Part shown: positions 26,539-29,114 of the stretch, piece by piece
How the letters are laid out: each line of letters begins with the position of its first letter
Numbering within the stretch: position 1 is the stretch's first letter
Source: Acidimicrobiia bacterium
GTDB taxonomy: Bacteria; Actinomycetota; Acidimicrobiia; Acidimicrobiales; SZUA-35
DNA: 35,584 nucleotides
Assembly: GCA_029861725.1 (NCBI GenBank)
Contig: JAOTYQ010000003.1
Coordinates: 1 to 35,584 of the forward strand
Reading direction: 5' to 3'
Made by a program: the position numbers and the translations under genes
Notes under the pieces: generated by a model
Databases searched by the model: none
The model's input: the letters and a program-made list of their open reading frames with translations, nothing else
What the model was told of the DNA's origin: nothing

Positions 26539-26761
26539 CGATGCTCCGCACGGCACGAAACGCCTGGCCCCGGTCGTGCTGCCCTCTGCGGTCCGTACTT
26601 CGGTTTCATCTGCACTGTCTCTCCCCGGGGCTCGGTTTGCGAGATCGGCCCCCGTTCAGCTGTGCAACCATTTTGTCGGCTGTCGCCATCCCGGTCGGCA
26701 CCGACCGTCGTTGGTTTCACCACATGTTCAGATCTCTGGCGGACCGGCGGTCTCGTCCGCG

Positions 26762-26787
26762 GATACCTTGACCGATACGTTGACCGA
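26762..26787 (+). promoter_or_regulatory. Tandem direct repeat upstream of the selenoprotein gene
   Basis: GATACCTTGACC-GATACGTTGACC-GA with a 12-bp period, about 50 nt before ATG 26838. Confidence 0.45.
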
Positions 26788-26837
26788 AGGCGTGCTCGCG
26801 GGGAATGCGCGGTCAGCCGTACCGGTTAGGGAACGCT

Positions 26838-27506
26838 ATGCCCCCAATCCTACGCCCCGGACGACGCCGGAGCCTCGTCGTCGTCCTGGTGGTCCTGGCG
26901 GTGATCGCCAGCGCCTGCGGCGAATCGTCGAGCGATACCGCTACCGCTGCCCCCGCTTCCGTCGACGACGAAGCCACCGCCCCGGCCCGGGCCGAGAGCT
27001 CGACGACGACCGGCCGATCGACCGCCGTTGAGCCCGACGATGGTGGCGAGGGCGGAGATGATGCGGTCGCGAGCGAGTCCGACCCCGGCGAGAACCTCTT
27101 CCCCGACGTCGATGTCGTCAACGTGGCCGATGGCGCCACGATCAACCTGGCCGGCGAGCTCGGCGGTGGCGATCTCCCCGTTCTGCTCTGGTTCTGGGCG
27201 CCCCATTGACCCTTCTGCCGGGCCGAGGGCCCGGCCGTCGAGCAGTTCGCTCAGCAGCACGGTGACAAAGTCCGGGTCGTCGGCATGGGCGCCCAGGACA
27301 GCCTCGATCAGGCCGTCGAGTTCGTGGCCACCACCGGTGTCGAGACCCCGCTGATGCTCTGGGACACCGGCTTCGACTCCTGGATCTATTACGGGGTCAA
27401 CGGCCAGCCGATCGCGATCCTCGTCGACGCCGATGGCAACCCGCTGCAGGGATGGAGGGGCCCGTTCGATGTCGACGAGGTGCTTCGGCTCGCCGCCGAG
27501 GTGTGA
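26838..27506 (+). CDS. Selenocysteine-containing thioredoxin-fold lipoprotein (TlpA/DsbE/ResA-like, UxxC), 222 aa with UGA read as Sec
   Basis: Lipobox IASA-C. PVLLWFWAPH-TGA(27207-27209)-PFCRAEGPAV continues in frame into VRVVGMG..YYGVNGQPIAILVDADG (cis-Pro region). The TGA sits at the first Cys of CxxC, and a SECIS-like hairpin follows. Confidence 0.87.
27217..27235 (+). promoter_or_regulatory. Putative bacterial SECIS element
   Basis: Perfect stem GCCGGGCC/GGCCCGGC with a GAG loop. The stem starts 8 nt after the UGA and the loop G is 16 nt downstream. Confidence 0.72.
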
Positions 27507-27632
27507 ACGACGCCGACTTGCACGCCCCGCCAACGCGGTCGTCCCGGACCCGGCCGGTAGGGGTGGAGATCCCCGAGTAGAGGGCGTAGTCTGCTGCGGC
27601 CGGCGTCCCCGAGCGTTCCAAGGGAGATCCTC

Positions 27633-27827
27633 ATGAAAGTCGTGGTCGATTTCGATCTTTGCGAGAGCAACGCCGTGTGCATGGGCATCGCCCCGGAGGT
27701 GTTCGAGGTGCGGGACGACGACTTCCTGTACATCCTCGACGAGCACCCTCCGCCCGAGCTCCACGACAAGGTGCGGGAGGCGGCCGAGCGCTGCCCGAAG
27801 CAGGCGATCAAGCTAGAGGACGACTGA
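27633..27827 (+). CDS. Ferredoxin ([3Fe-4S]-type, actinobacterial)
   Basis: VDFDLCESNAVCMGIAPEVF...CPKQAI (CxxNxxC...CP). AAGGGAG RBS. Confidence 0.93.
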   Translation: MKVVVDFDLCESNAVCMGIAPEVFEVRDDDFLYILDEHPPPELHDKVREAAERCPKQAIKLEDD

Positions 27828-27863
27828 GCGGCCGGCTCCACACCGAGCCGGCACGCCCCTCCG

Positions 27864-29114
27864 ATGCAACGAGTAGCCGTCATCGGTGCGTCGCTTGCTG
27901 GGCTGCACGCCGTCCAGGCGCTGCGCCGTGGTGACTACGACGGGCATATCGTCCTCGTCGGCGCGGAGCCGCACTACCCGTACGACAGGCCACCGCTATC
28001 GAAGAGCGTGCTCACCGACGACAGCGTCGACGAGTCCCGGCTGCGGCTCCGGCCGGCGGCCGATCCCGACGCGCTCGGGGTCGAGTGGCGGCTCGGCTCG
28101 ACCGCGGTGGGCGTCGACTCGCTCCCGACCGGCGACGGTCCGGCCCGGATCCGGCTCGACGACGGCCGCGGCAAGAGAGGTCCCGTCGTCGAGGCCGACG
28201 GCCTGATCATCGCCACCGGAGCCCGAGCTCGGCCCCTTCCGTCCTCCGAGGGCATCGCTGGCGTTCACCTGCTCCGCACGCTCGATGACGCTCTCGCCCT
28301 CCGAGCCGCGCTGATCTCCGAGCCCGGCCCGGTCGTCGTGATCGGCTGCGGCTTCATCGGCGCCGAAGTGGCCGCGTCGGCCCGCACCCGTGGGCTCGAC
28401 GTCACGATCGTCGAGGCCGCGCCGGCACCGCTGCTCCGGGTCCTCGACGAAGCGGCGGGGATGGCGATCGCCGACCTGCACCGAGAGCACGGCGCCGCCG
28501 TCCACCTCGGTGTGGGCGTCGAAGAGATCACCACGGCCGAAACCGCGACAGGACCGAGCGTCGAGGCCGTGCGGCTCACCGACGGGACCTCGCTCCCCGC
28601 GGCCGTCGTCGTCGTCGGCATCGGCGTCATCCCCAACACGGAATGGCTCGAGAGCTCGGGCCTGGTGATCGACGACGGTGTCGTTACCGACGAGACGTGC
28701 CTCGCCGCTCCGGGCGTGGTCGCGGTCGGCGACGTCGCTCGCTGGCCCAACCGCCGCTTCGGCGGCCGGCTCTCCCGGGTGGAGCAGTGGGACAACGCAG
28801 TCGAGATGGGGAGCTACGGTGGATCCCGGCTCCTCGCCTGGGCCACCGGCCGACCGGTCGAACCGTTCGAGCCGGTCCCGTGGTTCTGGTCGGACCAGTA
28901 TGACCGGAAGATCCAGCTGGCGGGCGTGCCGGCGCCGAACGCCGAGATCGTCCAGGGCTCGATCGCCGAGCGCCGGTTCGTACAGCTCTACACCGACGAC
29001 GACGACCTGGTCACCGGGGCGCTCTGCTGGAACCGCCCCCGTCAAGCGATCATGGCCCGCCAGCTGATCGGTCAGGGGGCGAAGACCAGCGAGATCCGGG
29101 ACGCGCTCAGCTGA
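27864..29114 (+). CDS. NAD(P)H:ferredoxin reductase (putidaredoxin reductase-like)
   Basis: GASLAG, PYDRPPLSK, IATGA, LRTLDDA, IGCGFIGAE, VGD, PWFWSDQY. Confidence 0.93.
   Translation: MQRVAVIGASLAGLHAVQALRRGDYDGHIVLVGAEPHYPYDRPPLSKSVLTDDSVDESRLRLRPAADPDALGVEWRLGSTAVGVDSLPTGDGPARIRLDDGRGKRGPVVEADGLIIATGARARPLPSSEGIAGVHLLRTLDDALALRAALISEPGPVVVIGCGFIGAEVAASARTRGLDVTIVEAAPAPLLRVLDEAAGMAIADLHREHGAAVHLGVGVEEITTAETATGPSVEAVRLTDGTSLPAAVVVVGIGVIPNTEWLESSGLVIDDGVVTDETCLAAPGVVAVGDVARWPNRRFGGRLSRVEQWDNAVEMGSYGGSRLLAWATGRPVEPFEPVPWFWSDQYDRKIQLAGVPAPNAEIVQGSIAERRFVQLYTDDDDLVTGALCWNRPRQAIMARQLIGQGAKTSEIRDALS

Follow-up and report, generated by a model that had tools for sequence, protein, structure and literature searches.

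In a 35,584-nt stretch of DNA (contig JAOTYQ010000003.1; hereafter the window) from a sediment metagenome-assembled genome (MAG) of the Acidimicrobiales (Actinomycetota; 87% complete, 7.4% contamination), positions 26838–27506 very probably constitute one intact gene for an exported lipoprotein selenoenzyme, in which UGA is read as selenocysteine (Sec). The site had been singled out in a reading of the sequence alone, which held that a single frame is split there by a lone TGA; the open reading frames (ORFs) 26805–27209 and 27285–27506 indeed lie in the same frame and are parted by one TGA at 27207–27209. When TGA is translated as U, the read-through peptide proposed at that time is reproduced exactly (...LLWFWAPH-U-PFCRAEGPAVEQFAQQHGDKVRVVGMGAQD...YYGVNGQPIAILVDADG...) and continues across the split, the residues just before Sec reading ...GGGDLPVLLWFWAPH-U-PFCRAEGPAVEQFAQQHGDKVRVVGMGAQD.... 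The gene also terminates in TGA (27504–27506). We favour ATG 26838 (MPPILRPGRRRSL...) over the alternative upstream ATG 26805 as the start because the database stubs of relatives begin MPEILR. Counted from this codon, the lipobox Cys is residue 27, Sec is residue 124 and the resolving Cys is residue 127; the stored query (P0001, 234 letters) runs from ATG 26805 and carries the terminal stop, read as U/C, as its last letter. All features are listed in Table 1.

The TGA is present in DNA that was assembled independently. Among short Logan contigs from four sediment metagenome runs, one contig (X3, 27038–27211) spans the codon with zero differences and shows TGA where a check of the raw reads for TGC or TGT had been proposed; a second contig stops one base short of the TGA, and parts of the stretch are uncovered. 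Sequencing error as the source of the TGA is excluded, since this contig agrees over the codon and since the TGA is conserved in orthologs.

A six-frame search was carried out in 60 related genomes, with the best 150 matches listed. In the 29 genomes that we examined the best match was strong and contained exactly one TGA. Together with the window this gives 30 loci in 30 genomes with domain identities of 46–74%, and the TGA falls in one alignment column in all of them (query position 135, motif W-[FW]-x-P-[HLF]-U-x-x-C), followed by 94–100 conserved residues per locus (218 in one). As the column is identical in 30/30 loci, chance as the cause of the TGA position is excluded. Eight domain columns are invariant, five of them downstream of the TGA (C46, G68, F81, W101 and G119), so that the relatives keep both the TGA and an intact downstream half; decay of that half had been named beforehand as the sign of a pseudogene. 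The orthology of the loci is supported by synteny: a divergently oriented molybdopterin oxidoreductase gene adjoins the gene in 23 of the 29 orthologous loci, and the downstream ferredoxin gene is found in 19 of 29, likewise the ferredoxin reductase gene.

The same picture was obtained over a wider range. Within family f1, matches at E ≤ 1e-28 were found in 31 of 36 other genomes, each best match with one TGA. When 200 further genomes were sampled evenly across the class, 15 of them had a match at E ≤ 1e-25; in this class-wide sample 18 of 20 matches carried one TGA, and the two without TGA came from one genome. The best 80 loci among all species representatives comprise 78 with TGA, one with TGC and one unresolved by pattern. 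Since part of these loci come from the earlier 29 genomes, and since the genomes are related to one another, the counts express breadth and not independent events. Some of the species representatives with matches bear the label Ilumatobacter. Homologs with TGA and homologs with Cys at this codon, the two kinds for which a search had been suggested, both exist. The Cys forms include P0002 (WAPH-C-PIC, 41% identical, lipobox present), P0009 (WAPWCTIC), L116 and L131–L133. The sequence-only reading had also expected annotation to miss the gene. This proved true: besides the split into two ORFs in the window, close relatives are stored in the protein collection as stubs of 128–142 aa without Pfam domains, one under the name ‘hypothetical protein [Acidimicrobiales bacterium]’. 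Two loci with an Acidimicrobiia-type gene (L097 and L094) lie in MAGs labelled Phenylobacterium sp. and Gammaproteobacteria bacterium; their contigs are short (2.8 and 11 kb), and mis-binning seems likelier than transfer.

The genome encodes the complete set of Sec genes for which a check had been called for, with every score over its curated cut-off. A tRNA-Sec was found with the Rfam model (68.8 bits) and by ARAGORN (tRNA-SeC, anticodon tca); selA (400 bits) and selB (282 bits) are adjacent on contig C201, and selD (367 bits; C907:10693–11610, minus strand) carries an in-frame TGA of its own at the classic GAG-U-GCK site. The G+C contents of the selA/selB and selD contigs are 0.689 and 0.693, and that of the window is 0.691. 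Five of five well-assembled relatives, one of them a single contig, have tRNA-Sec and selA. Among the best 150 matches, none of the TGA-bearing homologs belongs to G017, G030 or G044, and these three genomes have neither tRNA-Sec nor selA; in two others (G004 and G023) TGA-bearing homologs, tRNA-Sec and selA are all present.

Two RNA hairpins follow the UGA within the coding sequence, of which the second, helix 2, is the candidate selenocysteine insertion sequence (SECIS). In the alignment of the 30 orthologs helix 2 is 92.9% paired. Its pair 39-53 is C-G in 18 sequences, U-A in 10 and G-C in one, and couples the wobble position of a Val codon to a Gln/Arg codon farther downstream, a covariation that protein constraint would not produce. 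The two-hairpin structure outscores all 500 shuffles and all slid registers, and the score of helix 2 is reached by none of the 500 shuffles. Helix 1 is paired in 74.6% of cells, and both bases have changed in 5 of its 8 pairs; its register slips in some of the 30 orthologs, it partly survives in one Cys form (L132), and the R-A-E-G-P codons may account for part of its signal. Of the 7 helix-2 pairs, 5–7 are kept in every one of the 78 Sec forms among the 80 loci, and the loop in the 74 Sec forms tallied is AGUUC, AGUUU, AGUUA or GGUUC. Four Cys forms keep 2, 4, 3 and 2 of the 7 pairs, and the V-E-Q-F-A peptide is absent from them.

The SECIS of E. coli obeys a G23/U24 rule. In the present genome a G-U at +23/+24 was found in fdhA (loop GGUCU), two of three UGSC genes and a rhodanese-like gene. 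In selD the layout of spacer hairpin and G-U loop seen in the window recurs (loop GGUCG at +36 to +40, G-U at +37/+38), and the G-U of the redoxin gene and of selD lies ∼16 nt beyond the fdhA-type position, behind helix 1. The arrangement suggests that helix 2 may act as the SelB-binding element and helix 1 as a spacer; a conserved G in the apical loop is noted in a figure legend of an earlier paper (PMC2398784). We applied a simple hairpin rule (stem of ≥5 bp, G-U at loop positions 1-2 or 2-3) to 18 Sec candidates, which consisted of 15 chosen by redox motif or paralogy out of 89 in-frame TGAs from a GC3-based scan, selD and two paralogs. The rule was satisfied by 12 of the 18, compared with 213 of 2433 TGA stops and 211 of 2433 coding positions. 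The window gene is among the six misses because of a C.A mismatch at 27239/27253.

The N-terminus was described in the sequence-only reading as a signal peptide with the lipobox IASA-C followed by a Ser/Thr/Asp-rich linker, and both features can be read in the sequence. The lipobox pattern is present with its Cys codon at 26916–26918, and the lipobox with the preceding basic/hydrophobic pattern was found in 29 of 30 orthologous loci by regular expression only, the exception being cut by a contig end. Export by the Tat route was considered and is not favoured: a twin-arginine-like pattern (RRRSLVV here) occurs in only 10 of 29 loci, and for this reason the general secretion pathway with lipidation is more likely to be the route, judged from these patterns. 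The distance from lipobox Cys to Sec varies between 55 and 142 residues among orthologs, and this variable linker length would fit a flexible tether.

The catalytic domain belongs to the TlpA/DsbE-like fold that had been predicted. Pfam models matched above their cut-offs (Redoxin 3.7e-8, AhpC-TSA 1.7e-7; PF08534 33.7 bits, PF00578 31.6 bits), besides weaker thioredoxin-type matches such as PF13905 (26.8 bits, cut-off 27). The best hits of the PDB sequence search were Mycobacterium tuberculosis DsbF (3IOS, 5.4e-16) and MPT53/DsbE (1LU4, 7.4e-10). An AlphaFold2 model of the 141-residue domain, computed with an alignment of 32 sequences, reached a mean pLDDT of 96.0 and a pTM of 0.91; in this model U/C stands at domain residue 43, after strand 34–39 and at the N-terminal end of helix 44–60. 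Foldseek ranked DsbF 3IOS first (TM 0.79/0.83), then DsbE 1LU4, ResA, CcmG and Etrx2, a surface lipoprotein of pneumococci. In M. tuberculosis DsbF and DsbE the residue opposite the TGA is the N-terminal Cys of CxxC, so that the TGA takes the nucleophilic position that had been assigned to it, and the Q109-P110 cis-Pro loop, which aligns with the QQP of DsbF, is nearly invariant. The NCBIfam equivalogs were not reached, with scores of 44.9 against 123.15 for TIGR00385 (DsbE), 40.7 against 359 for NF011941, 32.8 against 170 for NF002854 (ResA) and 27.1 against 230 for NF047696 (TlpA). Since these values are far under the cut-offs, the protein is a member of the broad TlpA/DsbE-like fold class outside the curated DsbE, ResA and TlpA families.

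From these features the following course can be proposed. tRNA-Sec and SelB would decode UGA 27207–27209 as Sec, directed by an mRNA structure that would consist of a spacer hairpin and then a hairpin with G-U in a 5-nt loop. The product would be exported by the general secretion pathway and lipid-modified on Cys27, and the flexible linker would tether the domain to the outer face of the cytoplasmic membrane. There the DsbE/DsbF/TlpA-type domain would perform selenol/thiol-disulfide exchange, with Sec124 as the presumed attacking nucleophile and Cys127 resolving the mixed Se-S intermediate so that an internal selenenylsulfide would result. In an oxidising compartment Sec would speed up the exchange and protect the enzyme from irreversible over-oxidation.

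Several points weigh against the selenoenzyme reading or parts of it. Selenium incorporation is predicted from sequence, and a run search listed no RNA runs containing the stretch. Export and lipidation are predicted from a sequence pattern. The MAG is 87% complete with 7.4% contamination, and the tRNA-Sec lies on a 2.3-kb contig with a G+C content of 0.649; in 5 of 14 control genomes the Rfam tRNA-Sec model also exceeded its cut-off, so that alone it is not fully specific, and its match was used only jointly with ARAGORN and selA. The helix 2 of the window contains the C.A mismatch 27239/27253 and fails a strict rule of ≥5 consecutive pairs, although this pair fails in only 1 of the 30 ortholog sequences. 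Its G-U at +39/+40 is farther from the UGA than the +23/+24 of fdhA. The 70-nt fold is no stabler than shuffles (z = −0.94), but single-sequence fold stability is uninformative in a coding region of 69% G+C. A scan of 26700–27700 against Rfam at E ≤ 10 gave four sub-threshold sRNA matches and no family; Rfam is without a usable bacterial SECIS model for such a hairpin.

A nonsense mutation that killed an ordinary CxxC redoxin gene would suit the splitting of the gene by gene callers and the storage of its relatives as stubs of 128–142 aa without a Pfam domain. We nevertheless give a pseudogene next to no credence: the TGA is identical in 30/30 orthologs at 46–74% domain identity and coincides exactly with the catalytic Cys position, the downstream half is conserved with its invariant residues, and TGA forms co-occur with the Sec machinery. 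Conservation unbroken across the TGA also speaks against a true terminator, with a short lipoprotein stub as the functional product and possibly a C-terminal fragment started at ATG 27285. Such a start codon is available, and TGA is an ordinary stop in this genome, where it ends 2433 long ORFs; Sec decoding is moreover never fully efficient, so some truncated product is likely. However, the stub would end one residue short of the active site, and both database stubs with such an ending stop at ...WFWAPH. The C-terminal fragment would miss strands and the first helix of the fold, neither half alone makes a thioredoxin fold, and the whole domain was modelled as one unit with a pLDDT of 96. We consider termination as the functional outcome very improbable. 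The frame would likewise be open under any code that gives TGA a sense, so that a standard amino acid (Trp, Gly or Cys) could be inserted by an altered code or by near-cognate read-through. The probability of this is practically negligible, as the gene itself and thousands of ORFs end in TGA, a dedicated tRNA-Sec, selA, selB and selD are present, TGA forms are missing exactly where tRNA-Sec and selA are missing, and the conserved downstream hairpin tracks the TGA.

The redox direction of the enzyme is less clear-cut than its decoding. We lean slightly towards a reductase that is recycled by the membrane electron carrier CcdA, because ccdA adjoins the gene in eight more distant Sec loci: in one of these the Sec ortholog comes immediately after a same-strand DsbD_TM/CcdA gene (PF02683 31.8 bits, cut-off 27.1), and in seven further Sec loci a CcdA homolog is adjacent on the same strand. 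A CcdA homolog was also found, weakly, beside one Cys form. A DsbE/DsbF-like oxidase that introduces disulfides into exported proteins appears rather unlikely, but it draws on evidence that counts against the reductase role: no ccdA gene is adjacent in the window or in the 29 close orthologs, the closest solved relatives by sequence and by fold are DsbF (named disulfide bond forming protein) and MPT53/DsbE, and the motif C-[RQN]-[AG]-E-[AG]-P after CxxC is common to DsbF and DsbE. Set against this, ResA and CcmG, which are reductases, and the Etrx lipoprotein of pneumococci are equally close in fold, and a CcdA is encoded in the same genome. This gene (C742:4–741), the only CcdA homolog found in the genome, begins at a contig edge. 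The minus-strand end of another contig, C468, overlaps the start of C742 by 15 nt and carries a Cys-type TlpA-like gene (FFASW-C-APC), which suggests a classic resA-ccdA pair split by the assembly. Joining of C370, which has a Sec paralog at its end, to the CcdA contig was also tried, and no overlap was found.

The divergent molybdopterin oxidoreductase starts with a membrane region of several helices and carries an internal twin-arginine-like TRRGFFNLAG ahead of its catalytic domain, and is possibly co-regulated with the Sec gene. An obligate partnership of the two was rejected: they are adjacent in 23 of 29 close loci and in 0 of 5 distant loci, which points to synteny, the oxidoreductase being absent within ∼3 kb in three distant Sec loci and two Cys loci. 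Directly downstream (27633–29114, plus strand) lie genes for a small ferredoxin with a single 4Fe-4S cluster and a FAD-dependent ferredoxin reductase; such a pair usually works with P450-type oxygenases. Genes for cytochrome c maturation were not found nearby in the window.

The GC3-based scan suggests a large selenoproteome of 18 candidates, including selD and three DsbF-like genes, which were picked by eye from the 89 in-frame TGAs in a MAG with 7.4% contamination. They comprise FdhA (NRT-U-HAPS), a Prx (TTG-U-T), three UGSC proteins, two CxxU AhpD-like proteins, four xP[VLT]-U-PxC paralogs, a WASW-U-GC TlpA-like protein, a U-PPC Prx-like protein and a rhodanese-like protein (Y-U-ASGGR). In the DsbF-like paralog on C370 a nearly identical nucleotide stretch encodes U-STCRAEGPAVEQFARQ and both hairpins are present, as if active site and SECIS were conserved together as a cassette.

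Table 1. Location of the Sec gene, its parts and RNA hairpins, the divergent neighbour, and candidate Sec sites elsewhere in the genome (positions without a contig handle refer to the window)
Feature	Location	Strand	Remarks
Complete selenoprotein gene (very probable)	26838–27506	+	222 codons, i.e. 221 residues and stop; same layout in the orthologs of 29 other genomes
Lipoprotein-type signal peptide (predicted)	26838–26918	+	Basic n-region RPGRRR, hydrophobic core, lipobox I-A-S-A-C; Cys codon 26916–26918
Low-complexity Ser/Thr/Ala/Asp/Glu-rich linker	26919–27080	+	Joins the putatively lipid-anchored Cys to the catalytic domain; from translation
TlpA/DsbE/DsbF-type thioredoxin-fold domain, 141 aa	27081–27503	+	Pfam, PDB sequence search, AlphaFold2, Foldseek
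UGA selenocysteine codon (very probable)	27207–27209	+	Opens the redox motif U-P-F-C; opposite the first Cys of DsbF CPTC and DsbE CPFC
Helix 1, G+C-rich hairpin, 8 bp, loop GAG	27217–27235	+	7 nt after UGA; probable spacer
Helix 2, candidate SelB-binding SECIS hairpin, 7-position stem	27237–27255	+	Loop AGUUC (27244–27248); G-U at +39/+40 from U of UGA
Membrane-anchored molybdopterin oxidoreductase, sulfite-oxidase family, 544 aa	24922–26556	−	Pfam Oxidored_molyb 6e-40; divergent neighbour
Sec-containing DsbF-like paralog (candidate)	C370:13552–14124	+	33% identical overall
Sec-containing DsbF-like paralog (candidate), U-TSC	C567:1542–1862	−	Downstream structure different
Candidate Sec sites outside the window	C52(−)2161, C69(−)5581, C146(+)1377, C471(+)370, C505(+)701, C139(+)18834 and 19745		GC3-based scan
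Candidate Sec sites outside the window, continued	C200(+)9447, C368(−)3147, C549(+)5294, C729(+)2196, C328(−)6829, C626(−)6220, C625(+)1752		GC3-based scan

Taken further, and with somewhat less than even confidence, we suggest that the Acidimicrobiia possess a Sec-dominant family of surface lipoprotein redoxins, often with several paralogs per genome, a lineage-specific two-part SECIS, a large selenoproteome of at least 18 candidates in these sediment actinobacteria, and a selenium redox system outside the membrane that is perhaps fed by CcdA. If this is true, a SECIS embedded in the active-site helix fixes the peptide C-R-A-E-G-P-x-V-E-Q-F-A. The records of at least 90 species representatives either list the gene as a short ‘hypothetical protein’ stub or omit it, and for this reason the envelope redox capacity is described too incompletely for an actinobacterial class that is widespread in sediments and marine habitats. 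A curated model flagged for Sec, e.g. an NCBIfam hidden Markov model, would mend many of these annotations together. With its natural Cys revertants that lack the hairpin, the Sec-dominant family offers a ready comparative system, in which one can ask what favours Sec over Cys under oxidising conditions outside the cytoplasm and how the protein sequence is constrained by an overlapping SECIS.

The enzyme type as such is known, and the sequence-only reading overstated its case in calling an extracytoplasmic Sec redoxin in an actinobacterium unusual. Selenoprotein families with UxxC in a thioredoxin fold, and TlpA-like ones, have stood in catalogues since 2005 (PMC13188914, PMC1088965, PMC9312934); a ‘Thiol-disulfide isomerase-like’ family was introduced with four sequences in a Sargasso Sea study (PMC1088965) and placed under PF13905 (PMC9312934), and Actinobacteria were counted in 2006 among three selenoprotein-rich phyla (PMC1794560). 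A 2022 preprint proposes a system with lipoproteins among its components, in which selenoproteins face the outside of the cell. For Actinomarina, a member of the same class, Sec machinery and ∼5 predicted selenoproteins in each genome are reported in a 2026 preprint. The accessible text of three selenoprotein-family papers (PMC13188914, PMC1088965, PMC1794560) contains no mention of lipoprotein, periplasm or signal peptide and does not name the Acidimicrobiia, and a full-text literature search for Acidimicrobiia together with selenocysteine returned two papers, neither of which describes the redoxin family in its listing. The newer points are the predicted anchoring as a lipoprotein, the class-wide dominance of Sec, the displaced two-hairpin SECIS and the loss of the hairpin in Cys revertants.

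The catalogued UxxC/TlpA-like families resemble the present protein in the UxxC motif, the TlpA-like or thioredoxin fold and the occurrence of Sec/Cys pairs and, like it, were established by bioinformatic prediction only (PMC13188914, PMC1088965, PMC9312934, PMC1794560). With the ‘Thiol-disulfide isomerase-like’ family (Thioredoxin_8/cd02966), compared by motif and Pfam score only, it shares UxxC and narrowly misses the PF13905 cut-off (26.8 against 27). ResA of Bacillus subtilis, CcmG/DsbE, TlpA of Bradyrhizobium and Etrx of Streptococcus pneumoniae are alike in fold (Foldseek E 1e-11 to 1e-9) and in the membrane tethering that is predicted for the Sec protein. The position of ccdA beside eight distant Sec orthologs is a further likeness to the CcdA-dependent reductases, whereas the CcdA of this genome apparently stands beside a different, Cys-type TlpA-like gene. 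The nearest known proteins are the exported actinobacterial DsbF (3IOS), which is annotated as a lipoprotein, and DsbE/MPT53 (1LU4). They share the segment LWFWAP-x-[C/U]-P-x-C-x-x-E-x-P, in which LWFWAP-W-C-PTC of DsbF aligns with LWFWAP-H-U-PFC of the Sec protein, and the Q-P cis-proline loop, and their folds match with TM values of 0.79/0.83 and 0.75/0.79 at a domain identity of only 28–34%. In contrast to the Sec protein they carry Cys for Sec and Trp for His before the active site and have no long acidic/hydroxylated linker. With respect to the RNA, the candidate SECIS is like that of E. coli fdhF in being a hairpin that lies inside the coding sequence, shortly behind the UGA, and carries G-U in its apical loop, but here the G-U loop lies behind a separate 19-nt hairpin and not atop one continuous stem.

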